A stretch of 64,000 nt of DNA from a virus (IMGVR_UViG_3300032286_000710:102605-166604), one strand, 5' to 3'. Shown: positions 29,651 to 62,569, counted from the first letter of the stretch. Notes: generated from the letters alone by a model not told the origin. Program-made: numbers and translations.

Positions 29651-31744
29651 TTATTCTTCCATTTCTGCTAATTGTGATTGGATATATAAACTTATGACAC
29701 GCATTCTATACTTGTCTATATTCATAGACTCTGGATTAATACTTTCTTCTTGTAGAACACTAGCAAAAGCTGCGGGGGTCTTTCTATTTTCACTAAGTAT
29801 GTCTCTTATTGAAGTAGCATTGACTTCAGACATAATATCTACATTAGTAAGAACATCTACTTTTAATTTTTCTAGTTCTTTTACTTCTGATTTTGTTAGC
29901 TGTCTTAAGTTCTTTTTAGATTTAGAATTTAGATATGCGTCAGTAAGAACATCTGAAATTTCTTTCCAACTTTCTTCTGCCCAATATACAAACTCAGCTA
30001 CTCCCGGTTTCTTTTTTGGAGTTGCTACTCTTTGTTTTCTTGGTCCAGTATCTTGTTTAAATTGTGGTCTGCCATTTGGATTGCTAGGTTTAGGTGCATT
30101 AGGAAGACCTCCACCCGGTGTTACTGGCTTTGGCATTAATATATCCTTTGGAACACTTGTTTTTAAACCAACATCTTGGGGATTAACCTTTCCAGCCTGT
30201 AGAGCAATCTTTTCAAGATCCATTTTATGATTAGCATTATGAAATGGACTAGCTTTGTCTGGAGTATCTTCACCTTGTCGTTCTTCAAATTCTCTTTGCA
30301 GTCTAATCTTTTCAATCTGAGGAATTTCCTTAAATCTTTCAAGAACAGTTTCTTGGCTAATAATATCTCTATCAACAAGTTGTAGTAGAAGGGCTTTCTC
30401 TGCGGCTTCATCAGATAGTGTCATTTGGTCAAACTGAATATAGGCTTTGTATCTAAAACCCATAGCTTGTCTTACCATTTCAATTTCTTTTTCCCAAAAT
30501 CTAGTTAGCTGATCTCTACCGTACTGAAGTCTTTCTACTAGAGTCTTGAGGGAGATAAAGTTATTAGTAAAACCACCGCCGCCAGTAGCCATACCAGTTA
30601 ATGTTGGGGGAACACCTAATCCAGCATATATACTATTAAGTACCGAAGTATATTTTTCAGAACCAAGGAATTTGTATACTTCGCTGCTAGATTCTTGAAA
30701 GGATAGTTCTGGCCCCCAAACTAATTCCATCGTGCCACCACCAACATTACTGGCTAGAATATCTCGTAGTTTATTAATAGCTGTTTTGTTTGGTAAAATT
30801 TTGTGTTCAAGATTACCAAGTGTCCATAAGCGAATATTAGATATAGCACCATCCAAAGCGGACATATCTGCTAATCTCATCTTTTCTAACATGATAATAT
30901 CATCTAGGATAGCATAGATCATGGGATTTGCCCACATCTGCCAATCATCTTTCTTATAGTGAAAAACACAGAGTCTTTCTGAATCAAGCGGGATTCTTTT
31001 TTCTTTATTTAGTAATGCTTTCTTAATATCAGTTGGTAAGCTATCAAGAACATCATTAGGAAGTGAGCCTGACTGAAAAGTATCTAGGAATGTTCCAGCA
31101 CTTAAGGTATAGTTTGAAACACCCATAAACAATGCCATCTTACCATCTTTTAAATCTACAGTAAGGGGGCTAAAGAAGTTGTATCTCCAAGGAATTTGAT
31201 TTTGTTTCATATTTGGAGTTTCAACTTTGATATCCTTTGCTAGAGATTTCATATATTTTTCAAGCTCTGGAGTCACATTCGCATAACTACGATACATGAT
31301 AACATTACCAGTTTTATAAAGATTGTTTAAGAATCTTTCTGATCTTTCTTTTCCATTTACACTCTTAAACCACTGTTGGTAGAATTTTTCAACAGTTTTA
31401 TTAGGGTGAACAATGCTGATACCCTGACTACCAAAGTCGCCCATCAAATCAATAATATTTCTTATAATTCCAACTTTATCATAAGCGTCCATACACATCT
31501 TAATGATACGCTTTTGTTGAGTAGGTACAGACTCGGTTTGTCTGAATGCGTAATAGTCAAGTTTATTAAAACCGGGTCTTACTGACCTATTTGGCTCAAT
31601 GTCTGTAAAGTTTCTGTAGGCATCACTACCAGTAGATTTATTTAAGCCAGAATAAGAATTGATATTGTCGGACAATCTCTCCATAGCATTAGATTTGCTA
31701 GAAAAATTGTCATCAGACCAAGTTATCATGTCTTCTTCACTCAT
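29651..31744 (-). CDS. Portal protein
   Basis: 697 aa directly downstream of TerL; IIRNIIDLM and IYAGLGVPPTL portal-like motifs. Confidence 0.75.
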   Translation of the reverse strand: MSEEDMITWSDDNFSSKSNAMERLSDNINSYSGLNKSTGSDAYRNFTDIEPNRSVRPGFNKLDYYAFRQTESVPTQQKRIIKMCMDAYDKVGIIRNIIDLMGDFGSQGISIVHPNKTVEKFYQQWFKSVNGKERSERFLNNLYKTGNVIMYRSYANVTPELEKYMKSLAKDIKVETPNMKQNQIPWRYNFFSPLTVDLKDGKMALFMGVSNYTLSAGTFLDTFQSGSLPNDVLDSLPTDIKKALLNKEKRIPLDSERLCVFHYKKDDWQMWANPMIYAILDDIIMLEKMRLADMSALDGAISNIRLWTLGNLEHKILPNKTAINKLRDILASNVGGGTMELVWGPELSFQESSSEVYKFLGSEKYTSVLNSIYAGLGVPPTLTGMATGGGGFTNNFISLKTLVERLQYGRDQLTRFWEKEIEMVRQAMGFRYKAYIQFDQMTLSDEAAEKALLLQLVDRDIISQETVLERFKEIPQIEKIRLQREFEERQGEDTPDKASPFHNANHKMDLEKIALQAGKVNPQDVGLKTSVPKDILMPKPVTPGGGLPNAPKPSNPNGRPQFKQDTGPRKQRVATPKKKPGVAEFVYWAEESWKEISDVLTDAYLNSKSKKNLRQLTKSEVKELEKLKVDVLTNVDIMSEVNATSIRDILSENRKTPAAFASVLQEESINPESMNIDKYRMRVISLYIQSQLAEMEE

Positions 31745-31783: not shown

Positions 31784-33772
31784 TTAATACACATCTTTCA
31801 TATTATCAGAGAACCAACTGGGGCCAATATATAGCTTTTCGTCTTCTTTTGCTGGAACATGACCACCAGTAGCAAAACCCCCATAAAACTGATAGGCTTC
31901 TGGGGTTGGAGTCCTGTGTATTATTCTGCCAGCCATATTAGCCATTAATAGTGCAGAATATCTATCTTTTCTCATTTTACTTTTTCGACCAGTGCCAACT
32001 ATGACCTCTGGAGTGTCCCATCTATCTCTACCATTAGATGTTTGGGTCATCTGAATCATAGATAGTTCATCCTTAAGTTCCTCTATATCCATGACGCACT
32101 CTTCTAAAGTGTCAAACATTCTGCTTTTTAAACCATCTTCAGAGTTTGATAATCCAAGTGTTATAGAATCAAAGAAAGGAAATAATAAAACTTTATCTTC
32201 TAGATCTTTTCTCATTCCGTGATTAGCTTCTGCAAGCCAATCATATCTGGCAAATTGGCACATCTCTAATATATGTAATCCTCTTTCTCCATCTGTATCT
32301 TTGGGTTTATCGTCATCAATAGTGGGCCAGATTGGCATTTCGTCATCTTTAAGTTTGTCTTTATCGTGCAAAGACTCCATGACTGCTACACCACCACCTT
32401 GAGCATCCATAGCAATATGAACACATGGAAATAGTCTCATTAAATCTCTAATTTTTCTAGCACAATATGCATAGAAATCTGATTCTTTAGCATACCCCTT
32501 CTTTACTTTCTCTTTATGTTCTTGCCTTGTTGTTGTCCAGCAATGAACTATCTTTCGGCAGTCTCCACCGATCTCTAATACTACAATGCTGAAATTATCT
32601 ACTTCAGATGCGGGGTCAACGCCAAAAACATATCGTTTATTTGTATCACCAATAAGACATGCCTCAAATTTGATAATATCACCCTTAGAGTCCATAACGG
32701 GATTCTCATTACTACCAACAACGCAAGATTCTATTAATGATCTTTTAAAGAAGCCCTGACTATCCCTAGTAAAACAAGCCCCATATTCCATCTGATAAAT
32801 ACCAGCATGTACTGTAGCCTTAGACCTTGCTACTTGATCAGCGTCCATGAAACCCACTGGTAATAGTTCATATGGTATTCTTATTATAGAGTATTGCCGC
32901 CAATCAAATGTGTCTGGGGGTTGTTCTCCACTAAATACTTCCGTTAACTTGGCTCTATTTCCACGACTTTTTATAATAGCTTTCCACTTTTTCCAATATG
33001 TAGCAAAGTGATTAAAGTCATAGTAAGCGGTTCCAGACAGAATAATTTGATTATCTTTTATCTCAGTATTCTCTTCTTCAGTTTCTATCTCTATTCCAAG
33101 CTCTGCCGCTTTTTTCCTTGCGGATATTCTTTTCACATTTTGCACAGGGTCAGCACTAACAGCAGCAAAGCCCGCAACTACATTTTCAAATATATCTCTA
33201 GGAATAGAAGCAAATTCGTCTGCAACAATGTCGTTAGCACGTTGACCTCTAATCTTTTGACCATCACCTAACGGCAAACAGGTTATAACACTCTCATTAA
33301 TTCTCATGGTACATCTGTCAACATCTCTAGTGGGGCCGCTGTTACCATCGCACATATCTCTCAACATTGGGGCATTACGCCAGATAGTTTCCATATATTC
33401 AAATAACACTTTAGACTGTCTAAATGCAGCACCGACAATAACAATCTTTCGTTTGGGCATTAACATGGCTCTTAATATAGAATAAAGAGCTAGCTGGAAC
33501 GACTTACCAAGACCTCGACTACCAATTAACATGGGGAACTTTCTGTTCCACAACTCATGCATAATTAATGACTGAGATGGTAAAAGCTGTATATTAAGTA
33601 CTTGATGACATAAGAATGGTAGATATTCGGGTCTACTCATTAACCAAGACAACTTAAGATGAAAGTCATCATCTGATGGATTAATGATGGACATAGGATT
33701 AAAGATGTCCGTATCTATAACATCTAATCCTAGCCAAGCCTCATCTATAAGTTTGAGATTATTTTTTTTCAT
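31784..33772 (-). CDS. terL: Terminase large subunit
   Basis: Walker A GSRGLGKS, Walker B IVADEF, RGQRAN, nuclease FGVDPA and C-terminal KDRYSAL. Confidence 0.9.
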   Translation of the reverse strand: MKKNNLKLIDEAWLGLDVIDTDIFNPMSIINPSDDDFHLKLSWLMSRPEYLPFLCHQVLNIQLLPSQSLIMHELWNRKFPMLIGSRGLGKSFQLALYSILRAMLMPKRKIVIVGAAFRQSKVLFEYMETIWRNAPMLRDMCDGNSGPTRDVDRCTMRINESVITCLPLGDGQKIRGQRANDIVADEFASIPRDIFENVVAGFAAVSADPVQNVKRISARKKAAELGIEIETEEENTEIKDNQIILSGTAYYDFNHFATYWKKWKAIIKSRGNRAKLTEVFSGEQPPDTFDWRQYSIIRIPYELLPVGFMDADQVARSKATVHAGIYQMEYGACFTRDSQGFFKRSLIESCVVGSNENPVMDSKGDIIKFEACLIGDTNKRYVFGVDPASEVDNFSIVVLEIGGDCRKIVHCWTTTRQEHKEKVKKGYAKESDFYAYCARKIRDLMRLFPCVHIAMDAQGGGVAVMESLHDKDKLKDDEMPIWPTIDDDKPKDTDGERGLHILEMCQFARYDWLAEANHGMRKDLEDKVLLFPFFDSITLGLSNSEDGLKSRMFDTLEECVMDIEELKDELSMIQMTQTSNGRDRWDTPEVIVGTGRKSKMRKDRYSALLMANMAGRIIHRTPTPEAYQFYGGFATGGHVPAKEDEKLYIGPSWFSDNMKDVY

Positions 33773-45855: not shown

Positions 45856-45939
45856 TTGATAAACTGGGGGCTTATGGCATAATGATATCAAAGAAGCCAT
45901 AAGTAAAAGACAGTCGAGTATGGCAGACACCCCCATTTT

Positions 45940-46013
45940 GGGTCATTAGCTCAGTTGGTTAGAGCATCGGACTTTTAATCCGTTGGTCGTAGGTTCGAAT
46001 CCTACATGACTCA
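45940..46013 (+). tRNA. trnK: tRNA-Lys(TTT)
   Basis: Cloverleaf; anticodon loop CT-TTT-AA; T-loop TTCGAAT; no encoded CCA. Confidence 0.92.
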
Positions 46014-46074
46014 TTGACTTTTTGGTGTGTATACAGTATAATAGATAAAACCATTCCTTTAACCCCTAAATACT

Positions 46075-46218
46075 ATGTACAACGAAAATGTTATGAAGTG
46101 GTGCGGCCCTTATTATACTGAAGAGTACGATGATCTTATCGTATATGATGAGGAGATTATCGTAGTAGATGACAGTGGGGAATGGTACAATATTTATGAT
46201 TCGGAGGCTGGCGATTGA
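46075..46218 (+). CDS. Small acidic protein (47 aa)
   Basis: MYNENVMKWCGPYYTEEYDD... between tRNA genes. Confidence 0.45.
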   Translation: MYNENVMKWCGPYYTEEYDDLIVYDEEIIVVDDSGEWYNIYDSEAGD

Positions 46219-46228
46219 GTTGCGGGTA

Positions 46229-46299
46229 GCCTGCATAGTATAGTGGTATTACAGTTGATTTGTAATCATCGGACGGGGGTTCGATTCCCTCTGTGGGCT
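46229..46299 (+). tRNA. trnT: tRNA-Thr(TGT)
   Basis: Cloverleaf; loop TT-TGT-AA; some acceptor-stem wobbles or mismatches. Confidence 0.85.
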
Positions 46300-46304
46300 T
46301 TTGA

Positions 46305-46570
46305 TCGGGAATGGTGTAACGGTAGCACAAATGACTTTAACTAACCGGAGTGCATTATAGGGAAACCTTAAATTGTATAACCTCTCAAATTCGGGGAACG
46401 CTTAACTGCCAATCCCGAGCCAAGCCTATATGGAAGGTGTAACGACTTTACGGGAGGCGTCTAAAGCAATGCTATGACGAAGAGAAAGTCTAGACTACAA
46501 ACCGCAAGGGTAACGAAAGTTATAGTAGTATGTGGATCATTTTGTCTAGGTTCAAATCCTAGTTCCCGAA
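46305..46570 (+). tRNA. trnQ: tRNA-Gln(TTG) interrupted by a group I intron
   Basis: Exon 1 (46305-46337) joined to exon 2 (46533-46570) rebuilds AATGA-CT-TTG-GA-TCATT and the TCGGGAA/TTCCCGA acceptor stem. Confidence 0.88.
46338..46532 (+). ncRNA. Group I intron (IC3-like, 195 nt, no ORF)
   Basis: P AAATTCGGGGAA, Q AATCCCGAGC, R GTGTAACGACT, S AAGAGAAAGTC. P1 has a U·G wobble with the IGS GGAGTGCAT, and the intron ends in G. Confidence 0.88.
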
Positions 46571-47236
46571 CTTATTATAAGATTTAATCCATTTTCTTAC
46601 GGCGTTGTCACTAACGCCATACATTTTACCAATTGTAGTCATTGGATGATTTTTAATTAAATAATCTAATTCTTCTTTTGTTGGCCTGTCTACCTTCCTC
46701 AACCAAGGTTTTGGGCCTTGCTTACCTTTTTTAATTTTTGGTGGTTTTTTGAATCTTTTACCAGCATAAGTGTCTGTTTGACTATGACAATTTGGACATA
46801 AGAAACATAAATTTTCTAGTCTATTATCATTGGGAATACCATTTTTATGTTCAAGTTGTAATGATATCTTTTTGCCGTTCCACGTATTTAATAGTCCACA
46901 CTCTGCGCATTTATACTCAATTAAATTATTACGAATGATTCTTTGTTTAATACAGTTGCGATTCATAGTTCCATTTTCACAAAAATATTCGTGATTAGAT
47001 TTTTTAGGAGTAAATCGTTTTCCCTTATTTGAACCTTTACCAAGAGATATATGAGACATGTCTATATTTTCTTGCTTGGCCCTTCTTTTAACAGTGTTAT
47101 GGTTTCCACCCTTATTATTCATTCCAAAGTATCTTAAAATATCTGCAATTGTATTAGACTTAGAAACGAGATCTTTAAACTCATCTCTTGATATTGACCA
47201 TATAACGCTTCTATTTTTTCTTTTTTGTTCTTGCAT
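46559..47236 (-). CDS. Free-standing HNH homing endonuclease
   Basis: LQLEHKNG...DNRLENLCFLCPNCHSQT plus HTH modules; GTGTATA at 47294-47300. Confidence 0.85.
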   Translation of the reverse strand: MQEQKRKNRSVIWSISRDEFKDLVSKSNTIADILRYFGMNNKGGNHNTVKRRAKQENIDMSHISLGKGSNKGKRFTPKKSNHEYFCENGTMNRNCIKQRIIRNNLIEYKCAECGLLNTWNGKKISLQLEHKNGIPNDNRLENLCFLCPNCHSQTDTYAGKRFKKPPKIKKGKQGPKPWLRKVDRPTKEELDYLIKNHPMTTIGKMYGVSDNAVRKWIKSYNKFGN

Positions 47237-47307
47237 TTTTATTCCAAGTATGGTAAGATAACTGTGAATAGTAGATGTGTGATACCATATTATTATACAC
47301 AAAACAT

Positions 47308-47379
47308 ACGTAGGTAGCATAATGGTAGTGCCACAAACTGTTAATTTGTCATGTGTAGGTTCGACTCCTACCCTACGTG
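47308..47379 (+). tRNA. trnN: tRNA-Asn(GTT)
   Basis: Cloverleaf; loop CT-GTT-AA. Confidence 0.9.
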
Positions 47380-47383
47380 CTAT

Positions 47384-47455
47384 GGCCCCATCTTCTAACG
47401 GTTAGGAAATCGGATTTTCGCTCCGAGAATCAGGGTTCGATTCCCTGTGGGGTCA
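47384..47455 (+). tRNA. trnE: tRNA-Glu(TTC)
   Basis: Cloverleaf; loop TT-TTC-GC. Confidence 0.88.
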
Positions 47456-47459
47456 TTTT

Positions 47460-47533
47460 GGGAATGTAGATCAATTGGTTAGATCGCTAGCCTGTCACGC
47501 TAGAGGTTGCGGGTTCAAGTCCCGTCATTCTCG
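47460..47533 (+). tRNA. trnD: tRNA-Asp(GTC)
   Basis: Cloverleaf; loop CT-GTC-AC. Confidence 0.92.
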
Positions 47534-47544
47534 TTATCTTTTCG

Positions 47545-50297: not shown

Positions 50298-50708
50298 ATG
50301 ATTAAGGTACGTTATCATCTTCAGAAGGGTCAGTATTACAAGCACTGGCAGTTCAAAGATACTGAGACTAAGAGAGTGTGGTATGTTCATCCAGAAGAGC
50401 AAATCATTGAACTCCATAACTGTGTTCTCCACAATAACCGTAATGTGGCAAACAAGATTTATACGGGGGCTAATAAGGATGTTTGTGCATGGATAAAGTT
50501 CAAGGATGGTTTTAGGTATGATGAATCATTCATCCCCTCATATTCTACTCACCTAAAGTATGACCCTAGGAAACTCCCTTACTGGCATACTTGGTCAGGA
50601 AGAAACATTGACGGTTTTGCATTTGACATTCTACACCTTACATCCAAGGGTGTGTTCTACAATGAATGTAGGCAAAATATTTTGAATCCTCTAAAGATTG
50701 CCCCTTGA
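50298..50708 (+). CDS. Hypothetical protein
   Basis: 136 aa; KVRYHLQKGQYYKHWQ. Confidence 0.65.
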   Translation: MIKVRYHLQKGQYYKHWQFKDTETKRVWYVHPEEQIIELHNCVLHNNRNVANKIYTGANKDVCAWIKFKDGFRYDESFIPSYSTHLKYDPRKLPYWHTWSGRNIDGFAFDILHLTSKGVFYNECRQNILNPLKIAP

Positions 50709-50895
50709 CAAGCCGATAACATAGTGTATAATGAGAGAGTAAGACATGGAGAATGTAGCGTAATGGTAGCGTGTGGGAAGTTCCGAACTGCGACAATAGT
50801 GCAGAGTAGGCAAACAAATGCCCATGAAGTGGTTCGATTCCACTCTTCTCCCCTTGACAAGTCGATAACATAGTGTAGAATGATGGAGTAAGACA
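50701..50895 (+). promoter_or_regulatory. Tandem duplicated sigma70 promoters (about 46-bp direct repeat)
   Basis: TTGACA-agccgataacatagtg-TATAAT (50705) and TTGACA-agtcgataacatagtg-TAGAAT (50854). Confidence 0.8.
50748..50852 (+). ncRNA. tRNA-like RNA with an expanded anticodon loop of about 43 nt
   Basis: Acceptor GGAGAA(T)G/CTTCTCC, D-arm GCGT-AATGGTA-GCGT, T-arm AGTGG-TTCGATT-CCACT. Confidence 0.65.
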
Positions 50896-50905
50896 AAACA
50901 AATAT

Positions 50906-51039
50906 GCGTGCGTCTAGCGACTAGATTGGGATAACCTATACGATAAACCTACGGCTGTTATGCAGCGTGGGGTTGCCTAACGGGGTTATACGTTAGGATA
51001 GTATACCAATCTACGGGGGTGCGATTCCTCTGCCACGCT
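50906..51039 (+). ncRNA. tRNA/tmRNA-like structured RNA with a pseudoknot
   Basis: GCGTG/CACGC closing stem, T-like arm GGGGG-TGCGATT-CCTCT, helix TAGATTGG/CCAATCTA and two inner hairpins. Confidence 0.6.
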
Positions 51040-51046
51040 CTAATAC

Positions 51047-51267
51047 AACCAGTAACCGTTACTAAGAGCCAGACCAGAGCGGCAATGCCCGCTTTGCAGG
51101 GAGGATTTCCGTGGGCGGTTTACAACAGTTCCGTAATAGGGTAGACTGTTGAGTAAGGATTTGGGCGTAAATGATCCGCTGGTTATAACTCTGCTGGTAG
51201 TTTCCTTACAAAAGGTTGAACGGATTAGTACCGAGAGGCTGTTCGTAAAACTACCAGTGGTCGGTAC
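51047..51267 (+). ncRNA. Candidate structured RNA(s): a multibranch domain and a pseudoknotted three-way junction
   Basis: AACCAG/CTGGTT, CAACAG/CTGTTG, CTGGTAGTTT/AAACTACCAG, and loop GTACCGA pairing with TCGGTAC. Confidence 0.5.
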
Positions 51268-51303
51268 ACTTGACTTGACGATAACTAATGGTATAATAAT
51301 AGT

Positions 51304-51519: not shown

Positions 51520-51781
51520 TTTTCATGGCCCTCGTCGCCCTGTTAATGGTCAAAAGATCATCTATTATGGTGAGGCTATTGGTGTGTGGCGTGGTACATA
51601 CAAGATAAACTATGATGATAAGTTTTGTATTCATAATATCTATTGTGGTGAAACTTGGGGAAATGTAGACTATATGGATGCCCCGTGGTGGATGCCAGAT
51701 TTAGGACAAGAGAAACCACAACCACCTAGCGAAGATTACCCCTCCGATTACCCTTGGATTAATAATAAGGAAAACAAATGA
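51506..51781 (+). CDS. DUF551-like hypothetical protein
   Basis: MEWIS...P...WMP motif. Confidence 0.55.
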   Translation: MEWISFHGPRRPVNGQKIIYYGEAIGVWRGTYKINYDDKFCIHNIYCGETWGNVDYMDAPWWMPDLGQEKPQPPSEDYPSDYPWINNKENK

Positions 51782-52137
51782 TTAACGTTGGAATGACGAT
51801 TCGTGAGATGGTGAGCATTGCTTCTAATGGTAGTTGCAATGGTGATCTGTATGAGCGGATTATCAAGGCTCTGGAACTGGCTACTGGCAATGAGAAGTTG
51901 CTGGTTGGCTGTAACGGTGTCAAGTATGATACTCAGTATTGGGATGGCAAGATTCCTGCTATCAAGAGCCTGCGTCTGGCTACTGGTATGGGATTGAAGG
52001 ATGCCAAGGATTGGGTTGAGGATGCCCAATACCACAGTGGAACTAAGTACACTGGCCCTCTTGATCCCGAAGTTGCACAAAAACTGTGCGACGAACTCAA
52101 GAAGTGTGGTATGGATTGCTGGACCACTAACTCTTGA
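51778..52137 (+). CDS. Ribosomal protein bL12 (L7/L12) C-terminal-domain protein
   Basis: KIPAIKSLRLATGMGLKDAKDWVE...EVAQKLCDELKKCG matches the bL12 CTD signature. Confidence 0.7.
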   Translation: MINVGMTIREMVSIASNGSCNGDLYERIIKALELATGNEKLLVGCNGVKYDTQYWDGKIPAIKSLRLATGMGLKDAKDWVEDAQYHSGTKYTGPLDPEVAQKLCDELKKCGMDCWTTNS

Positions 52138-53465: not shown

Positions 53466-53523
53466 TTCTCCCTTGAGTGTATGGGTGGCGTATGGTACAA
53501 TACTATGCGTCACCCGTATCTAT

Positions 53524-53599
53524 GGGGCGTAAGGTAAGCCGGTTGCATCCGCCAATCTTATAAGTTGGTCATAGGTCTGTTCGACTCAGACACGCCCTA
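53524..53599 (+). tRNA. trnI: tRNA-Ile(TAT)
   Basis: GGGGCGT/ACGCCCT acceptor, CCAAT-CT-TAT-AA-GTTGG anticodon arm, GTCTG-TTCGACT-CAGAC T-arm; atypical D-arm. Confidence 0.75.
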
Positions 53600-53662
53600 T
53601 TTTAGTAGTCTTATAATGCTTTTCGTGTATAGTATAATATCAACTACTATACAGGAGCATAT

Positions 53663-62342: not shown

Positions 62343-62425
62343 GCCGCTGTGGTGGAATTGGCATACACATGGGACTTAAAATCCCACGCCCTTTAGGCTT
62401 GCGAGTTCAAGTCTCGCCAGCGGTA
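62343..62425 (+). tRNA. trnL: tRNA-Leu(TAA)
   Basis: Class II cloverleaf; loop CT-TAA-AA. Confidence 0.92.
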
Positions 62426-62437
62426 TTAAAAATTTTT

Positions 62438-62511
62438 GCCCCAATAGCTCAATTGCATAGAGCAACGCACTTCTAATGCGTAGGTTACAGGTTGGAGTCC
62501 TGTTTGGGGTA
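62438..62511 (+). tRNA. trnR: tRNA-Arg(TCT)
   Basis: Cloverleaf; loop CT-TCT-AA; variant D- and T-loops. Confidence 0.85.
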
Positions 62512-62569
62512 CTTTTACTTTTGGTGTATAATTGGATAGATAAATGTTCTCTATCCAAAGGAATTAAAA

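Follow-up and report, generated by a model that had tools for sequence, protein, structure and literature searches.

That phages T4 and T5 produce tRNA-like stable RNAs was recognized as early as the 1970s. T5 encodes RNA1 and RNA2 (AY543070, positions 30501-30644 and 32959-33083), which are annotated as "tRNA-like stable RNA with unknown functions", and T4 encodes two stable small RNAs, rnaC (species 1 RNA, 139 nt) and rnaD (species 2 RNA, 119 nt), directly after its tRNA cluster, with which they are co-transcribed. Judged by architecture, T5 RNA1 and RNA2 and T4 rnaC are the closest described analogues, without sequence homology, of the RNA analyzed here, which lies at positions 50906-51039 (+) of a 64,000-nt stretch of DNA (the window) from an uncultured lake phage. 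The T5 RNAs are similar in that they measure 125-144 nt, lie in a tRNA region on the tRNA strand, and combine a tRNA-like acceptor stem and T arm with an enlarged middle; however, their D and T loops are canonical, their acceptor stems have 7 bp, and linker bases are retained, all points in which the lake phage RNA differs. Neither their annotation nor their single-sequence folds contain a pseudoknot, which minimum free energy (MFE) folding cannot predict. In T4 rnaC, a terminal stem closes the GGGUUCGAAUCCC T arm, but the inner architecture of this RNA is unlike that of the lake phage RNA. The features that mark such phage stable RNAs (a place in the tRNA region, the tRNA strand, and a closing stem with a T arm) are all found in the family described below. 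The covariance model R1 of this family scored 3.3 bits or less on T5 RNA1, RNA2, RNAI, RNAIII, and RNAIV and, when run on T4 rnaC and rnaD, 2.4 bits on rnaC, thus giving no homology to either set. Its best matches in the T4 and T5 tRNA regions, themselves weak, were true tRNAs, aligned via the outer stems P1 and P7.

The window covers positions 102605-166604 of an IMG/VR phage record that is complete at 166.6 kb and has direct terminal repeats. The large proteins of this phage gave few PHROGs matches, which were restricted to the tail fibre, the terminase, and some virion proteins, and a blastn comparison with 50,697 cultured phage records returned nothing similar. The RNA is located within an early-type + strand region with dense sigma-70-like promoters, small ORFs, and eight tRNA genes (45939-47534, 53523-53600, 62343-62512). 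A preliminary description of this site, made from the sequence alone, had proposed an undescribed tRNA mimic with an internal pseudoknot, or a decoy for SmpB, EF-Tu, a Ro60-type protein, or anticodon nucleases. The word undescribed held up: an Rfam cmscan of 20 kb and of 621 bases, with E values up to 10, gave no match on 50906-51039, and a full-text literature search found no account of such an RNA. The large phage RNA family to which it belongs is therefore absent from the RNA family database entries and the literature searched. Elsewhere in the tRNA region, a group I intron match (46327-46508, +) scoring 47.4 bits (Rfam threshold, 50) adjoins a tRNA-Thr gene and is followed by a long antisense ORF (46559-47320).

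To collect relatives, the flanking proteins were used as queries, which yielded 22 related loci, many of them with an RNA homolog, and a conserved-core DNA pattern retrieved 58 IMG/VR stretches and at least 120 metagenome stretches, as well as two contigs binned into MAGs. R1 was then run on the collected loci and gave 79, 87, and 11 matches, the metagenome part being counted among the matches listed. About 110 distinct full-length versions of 109-158 nt, from IMG/VR phage contigs and lake metagenomes, were found among the matches listed. The window copy scored 117 bits with R1, and no second copy was found in the phage genome. The distribution of the RNA is patchy, as for an accessory element: the same neighbor genes occur with and without it, and one related locus (L016) has no copy within 3 kb.

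Folded on its own, the sequence does only modestly better than chance. Its MFE was -48.7 kcal/mol (z = -2.3), and 4 of 200 shuffled sequences folded equally well; the case therefore rests on the relatives. In the IMG/VR alignment (52 distinct rows), 94.2% of the cells were paired, compared with 38-44% when the partners were slid, and 31 of 50 pairs had changed on both sides; none of 500 shuffles reached any of the five measures. In the metagenome alignment (75 distinct rows among the matches listed), the corresponding values were 95.5% versus 39-41%, with 31 of 51 pairs changed on both sides, a result that again none of 500 shuffles reached. Both alignments were fitted to the covariance model; independently of it, RNAalifold on a plain MAFFT alignment recovered P1, P2, P3, P6, and P7. 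Conserved G-U pairs are abundant and occur at two P7 positions in 51 and 52 of 68 metagenome rows among the matches listed; such pairs fit the + strand only. The rival explanation of a decaying tRNA pseudogene or a chance fold could draw on the modest z-score, but it is refuted by the covariation, namely by compensatory changes in every helix across about 110 distinct copies among the matches listed, together with invariant junctions, and we give it practically no weight. On this comparative evidence, the alignments show a conserved, strand-specific fold with a top stack of tRNA length, a pseudoknotted arm, and no decoding loop. Nearly all of the fold elements that had been proposed were found where they had been placed, and the observation at 50906-51039 (+) is confirmed, at the level of comparative sequence analysis, as a real RNA, with one correction that concerns the D-like loop.

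The outer part of the RNA forms a tRNA-like frame consisting of P1, P2, the start of P3, and P7. P1, the closing acceptor-like stem (50906-50911 with 51033-51038, +), is supported by covariation and is 96% paired, with compensatory changes at four of its six pairs and variants such as CGUAG/CUACG, GCGUGA/UCACGC, and UGUGUG/CACACA. The stem GCGUG/CACGC that had been proposed is present in the window, where the sixth pair of the comparatively defined 6-bp helix is a C-C mismatch. P2 (50912-50921, +; GUC-UAGC-GAC) is the element that needed correction: the D-like loop had been called stemless, but it is a short hairpin of 3-4 bp across the family, which covaries and is 96% paired (GUCC/GGAC, GUAG/CUAC, and GUUC/GAAC in relatives). 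Its loop contains no GG and reads, for example, AUGCUCAAG, AUGCCUG, or UUGCCG in relatives, and the CGAC ending that had been pointed out is not conserved among them. P3 (50922-50929 with 51006-51013, +) replaces the anticodon stem with an 8-bp covarying helix, which in the window is UAGAUUGG/CCAAUCUA, exactly as had been described; it is 98.8-99.5% paired and shows U-A/A-U and G-C/A-U swaps at three positions.

P7, the T-like hairpin (51014-51032, +; CGGGGG-UGCGAUU-CCUCUG), adjoins both P3 and P1. As described earlier, it is a hairpin with the loop UGCGAUU; the comparative data lengthen its stem to 6 bp (CGGGGG/CCUCUG), 97% paired and with compensatory changes at four pairs. Since P7 has 6 bp and abuts P3 and P1, P1 and P7 form a continuous 12-bp stack, in which their 3' strands are adjacent. 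This is the length of the acceptor/T-arm stack of tRNA, although the 6/6 split is unusual. Splits of 8/4 and 9/3 between acceptor and T stem are known in natural tRNAs (PMC5389517), which likewise keep the sum of 12 bp but have anticodon arms and decode. All four linkers of the resulting four-way junction have zero length, and a junction of this kind need not form an L shape. The anticodon arm (a 5-bp stem and a 7-nt loop) is replaced by about 85 nt comprising P3, the pseudoknot, and a three-way junction, so that, having no anticodon loop, the RNA cannot decode; the tRNA model RF00005 gave no match on 50906-51039 with E values up to 10. The idea of a tRNA mimic with an internal pseudoknot is thus borne out by covariation as a tRNA-like top half carrying a knotted arm.

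The two loops of the frame differ among subgroups. The window's subgroup has the P7 loop UGCGAWU, the main subgroup AUNGCR, and the most distant subgroup UUGGAUU. In tRNA, the elbow is formed by a UUCRANY T-loop and the GG of the D-loop; AUNGCR is not a T-loop, and in the main subgroup it occurs together with the D-like loop AUGC. A contact of 4 bp joining AUGC in the P2 loop to GCRU in the P7 loop was considered: only its GC:GC core is constant, U-to-A and C-to-U variants are uncompensated, and no compensatory change between the two loops was observed across the relatives. Because the variants are uncompensated, a loop-loop contact remains a guess. The loop pair of the window, UAGC (P2) with UGCGAUU (P7), also occurs in ARAGORN-called tRNA-Met(CAU) genes of related phages. 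ARAGORN calls of tRNA-Met(CAU) genes with the T-loop UGCGAAU were made in four loci (L049:13601-13677, L060:10749-10825, L067:5556-5632, and L103:1207-1283); this T-loop is unusual in having G at position 55, and the D-loop of these genes contains CUAGCC.

Inside the frame lies a domain built around a second junction. The complementarity between the bulge AUAACC (50931-50936) and the hairpin loop GGUUAU (50984-50989), already recognized in the preliminary description, is present and covaries across the relatives as a pseudoknot that in the window has 7 bp, formed by AUAACCU in the P3/P4 bulge (50931-50937) and GGGUUAU in the P6 loop (50983-50989) on the + strand. This helix is 99.4-99.8% paired and includes a G-C to C-G swap (27:20 and 47:24 in the two alignments); its forms are AUAACC/GGUUAU, AUAAGCC/GGCUUAU, UUAAGCC/GGCUUAA, AUAGCC/GGCUAU, and AUAAGA/UCUUAU. 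P4 (50937-50941, UAUAC, with 51001-51005, GUAUA, +) was also found as proposed and has 4-5 bp across the family (AUUAC/GUAGU, AUUUC/GAAGU, and CAGCA/UGCUG in relatives); its paired fraction of 84-86% is lowered by a one-column misalignment of a variant subgroup. The strand J4/5 of the inner three-way junction, GAUAAA (50942-50947, +), is nearly invariant, and the other junction strands in the alignment are (G)UUG (J5/6) and AUA (J6/4). Two inner hairpins had been placed at 50946-50974 and 50976-50997, and both are present. P5 (50948-50971, +) is a covarying hairpin of variable length, with compensatory changes at 8 of 10 pairs in the IMG/VR alignment and 10 of 10 in the metagenome alignment (among the matches listed), and P6 (50976-50997, +; CCUAAC/GUUAGG), whose loop GGGGUUAUAC provides the second pseudoknot strand, is 99% paired, with such changes at 3 of 5 and 5 of 5 pairs, respectively (the latter among the matches listed). 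In its family form the P6 loop, GG(C)UUAU, pairs with the bulge AUAA(G)CC. The junction core consists of ACUAGA, UCUAU, and CGAUAAAC, all nearly invariant, and CGAUAAAC was invariant in a 43-sequence alignment. A rival pseudoknot between the downstream CAGUAACC and the P6 loop was rejected, because CAGUAACC does not change in step with the G-C/C-G swap in the supported helix.

The order of parts (an acceptor-like stem, a long helix, a pseudoknot, and a T-like arm) is reminiscent of the 5' part of tmRNA, and the preliminary description had recognized the layout of the tmRNA tRNA-like domain. A reduced relative of tmRNA, comprising a tRNA-like domain, a P2-like helix, and a PK1-like pseudoknot but no tag frame, might interact with SmpB and EF-Tu on ribosomes that have stalled, or inhibit trans-translation, and the mRNA part is indeed reduced in the tmRNAs of jakobid mitochondria. 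Two departures from tmRNA had already been noted in the preliminary description, and both were found. The alanine determinant G3-U70 is missing in the window, where position 3:70 is G-C, as it is in 45 of 49 distinct IMG/VR rows and 62 of 68 distinct metagenome rows among the matches listed; G-U, which would suit a tmRNA, was found in 4 of 49 and, among the matches listed, 5 of 68. There is also no place for a usual tag reading frame, since the bases between the P3 strands all lie in covarying helices or short invariant junctions, and neither an ORF spanning the RNA nor a resume codon was found. The layout itself was not supported either: tmRNA has a 7-bp acceptor stem and a stemless D-loop, but the phage RNA has a 6-bp stem, a D-like stem that covaries, and no conserved CGAC. 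ARAGORN reported eight tRNAs and no tmRNA in the window, and the tmRNA models RF00023, RF01849-51, and RF02544 gave no match in the 20 kb or the 621 bases with E values up to 10. A link to tmRNA is not supported by these observations, and we regard a reduced tmRNA as hardly likely at all.

YrlA, which works with Ro60 (Rsr), offers another comparison, because it is a non-coding RNA that contains a tRNA-like module. However, the ends of YrlA form the Ro-binding stem and its tRNA-like part is distal, whereas the ends of the phage RNA form the acceptor-like stem. Identity with YrlA was rejected: the RNA had no Rfam match, and no TROVE/Ro60 gene (PF05731) is present in the complete 166.6-kb phage record, which also lacks an RtcB gene.

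The frame is carried in related loci either with the full inner domain or with alternatives to it. A short form of about 110 nt (L011, L002, L012, and L112) has lost P5 and the GAUAAA strand but kept the pseudoknot; in L017 (2232-2375) the frame holds a different insert and retains a covarying pseudoknot; and a bare 70-nt frame is found at L136:2193-2262 (-) and, identical, at L164:1574-1643. In L031 and L042, outer and inner parts of different types have been recombined. One frame with varied inserts fits a frame-plus-cargo design. The reverse arrangement was never seen: when the inner-domain pattern GATAASC..CGATAAAC..GGTTG was searched for, 11 of 39 new loci held the RNA, always on the same frame, and none had the domain on another frame. 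The other 28 pattern loci had no model match and looked like chance occurrences in unrelated sequence.

Several further RNA units were noticed in these loci. The bare frame, found about 100 nt downstream from a full copy, consists of P1, the D-like hairpin, an arm of 4 bp with a loop of 11 nt, P7, and a CCAAUACAA tail. In L113 (around 400-470, +) and L164 (around 1070-1140, -), a tRNA-derived unit on which ARAGORN is silent was made out by eye; in it, an acceptor-like stem of 7 bp is combined with a CUAGC-loop hairpin and a 6-bp T arm (loop UGCGAUU), and an anticodon arm is lacking altogether. A divergent copy of the pseudoknot RNA at L210:1388-1524 and L220:2374-2510 (-) scored 74 bits, with P3 of the form UGG..GG/CC..CCA and the T-like loop UGCAAUU, and a U run right after its closing stem replaces the AUACAA trailer. 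At L025:6894-6968 (-), ARAGORN called a tRNA whose enlarged loop contains a four-base anticodon (gaga); this tRNA ends a string of RNAs holding two tandem copies of the pseudoknot RNA.

The RNA had been said to stand behind its own promoter, and a sigma-70-type promoter (TTGACA-16-TAGAAT; 11 of 12 matches) is indeed found upstream at 50854-50881 (+). A near-duplicate of it at 50705-50732 is positioned to drive an upstream tRNA-like RNA. Across the family, a promoter ends at most 35 nt upstream in 52 of 111 distinct contexts among the matches listed; in the remaining 59 there is no promoter close by and the RNA follows another RNA unit. All 212 tRNA genes of the fetched loci share the strand of the RNA, and their median distance from it is 1.6 kb (among the matches listed). 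Between promoter and P1 lies a single-stranded leader, ACAAAACAAAUAU (50893-50905, +; family consensus ACAAAC-W-U). Of the 110 distinct copies among the matches listed, 78 have ACAAAC at most 12 nt upstream and 103 have U at -1; ACAAACWT is not enriched elsewhere in the window. Such strong conservation of a leader is atypical of RNase P substrates and may point to a different nuclease or a different role.

On the 3' side, the window copy ends in the tail U-CUA-AUACAA (51039-51048, +), where relatives have CCA or N-CCA followed by AUACAA. Of the 110 distinct copies among the matches listed, 54 have CCA immediately after P1 and 11 have N-CCA, so that 65 carry a CCA-type tail, and 96 have an AYAYAA trailer; outside this flank, the window shows no enrichment of AATACAA. 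The tail of the window copy itself is U-CUA rather than CCA, and in the main subgroup CCA comes after the 6-bp stem without a discriminator base. None of the eight tRNA genes of the window encodes a 3' CCA. The frequent CCA could therefore be part of a conserved spacer, CCAAUACAA. A gene for a CCA-adding enzyme is also absent from the phage, which would thus depend on the host enzyme.

Leader and trailer are kept whatever lies beyond them, and together with the nearly invariant junction core and the pseudoknot this might indicate a new self-cleaving ribozyme, or a sequence-specific nuclease site, that cuts a multi-RNA transcript at the conserved spacer. We consider this very unlikely, as no Rfam ribozyme family matched, the inner junction has no hammerhead core, and the flanks persist in the short variants and in the bare 70-nt frame, where the full inner domain is missing.

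What follows the RNA bears on a different rival. A cis-acting leader, either riboswitch-like or an antitermination element, would control the sequence downstream of it, and the frequent position directly behind a promoter would suit such a role. So would the three-way junction with a loop-bulge pseudoknot, a combination found in some riboswitch aptamers, the THF riboswitch being an example. However, the RNA is followed by no fewer than six unrelated sequences, the commonest of which begins CCAGUAACCG, as in the window, and the 59 contexts without a nearby promoter argue in the same direction. Tandem copies also occur, with 5 unmatched bases between them (10 nt between the two closing stems), an arrangement like that of tRNA arrays; neither a terminator nor a pairing partner for a ribosome-binding site was found, and a stem joins the two ends, as in a free-standing RNA. 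Control in cis is accordingly given only a very slim chance.

The surroundings of the RNA in the window contain other candidate transcripts. Positions 50749-50851 (+) hold a second promoter-driven, tRNA-shaped RNA, which scores 29.9 bits with the Rfam tRNA model (threshold, 29). Its acceptor, D, and T arms are normal, and about 43 nt replace the anticodon loop; in L012, the pseudoknot RNA comes immediately after a counterpart of this RNA, without an intervening promoter. The gene-free stretch 51049-51270 (+), which begins CCAGUAACCG, is 70-94% conserved in many related loci and probably encodes at least one more structured RNA. Some 750 nt past the tRNA-shaped RNAs in the downstream direction, a 119-aa ORF (51778-52137, +) matches the L7/L12 C-terminal domain (PF00542) with 30 bits (cut-off, 25.9).

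Our main reading, to which we assign a probability of roughly 0.5, is that this non-decoding, tRNA-shaped RNA of about 135 nt is made early, is excised by host tRNA enzymes, and binds or titrates a factor through its knotted arm. Transcription would start early from a strong sigma-70 promoter, within a string of separately folding RNAs. RNase P would then cut after the near-invariant U at -1, the 3' end would be trimmed in the AUACAA spacer with the CCA kept or repaired, and the product would accumulate as a stable RNA. The U at -1 and the CCA-type tail make excision by host tRNA-processing enzymes probable. The knotted arm, displayed on the tRNA-like frame, would be the working part, acting in trans on a host or phage factor that handles tRNA; this action in trans is the weakest step of the mechanism.

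A narrower proposal is that the RNA is a decoy for a host defense system or toxin that attacks tRNAs, such as an anticodon nuclease, which would be attracted by the tRNA frame and trapped on a knotted arm it cannot cut. Predicted early, promoter-proximal expression, the patchy, accessory-like presence, the location among phage tRNA genes, and the shuffling of frames and inserts between phages, as is usual in counter-defense loci, all speak for it, though purely circumstantially. On the other hand, the anticodon arm, which such nucleases recognize, is precisely the part that is missing, and we hold the proposal to be doubtful.

The main reading, a processed RNA whose knotted arm binds or titrates a factor, can also be extended toward the design principle of the frame. 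Ponchon and Dardel reportedly engineered a "tRNA scaffold", in which a cargo RNA replaces the anticodon arm and is processed and stabilized like a tRNA. That scaffold is a laboratory design, whereas the phage RNA would be a natural counterpart with a degenerate frame. It is conceivable, though on balance unlikely, that the family is such a natural scaffold plus cargo: an early-made, reshuffled RNA decoy cassette with which large lake phages trap host proteins that recognize or attack tRNAs. In this extended form, the knotted arm would be the trap, and its targets might include defense nucleases, toxins, and modification and processing enzymes.

Overall, these results add to phage biology an RNA family that is unannotated and missed by the current annotation of environmental phage genomes. 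They indicate that the 12-bp rule for the top half of tRNA can hold with a 6/6 split on a linker-free four-way junction. With more than 100 covarying sequences, a defined frame, a knotted cargo, and natural variants in which parts of the cargo are missing, the family provides a well-supported natural example for the question of the T4 and T5 stable RNAs and makes that question experimentally testable. If the decoy-cassette reading is true, it would suggest a role for these long-unexplained RNAs.
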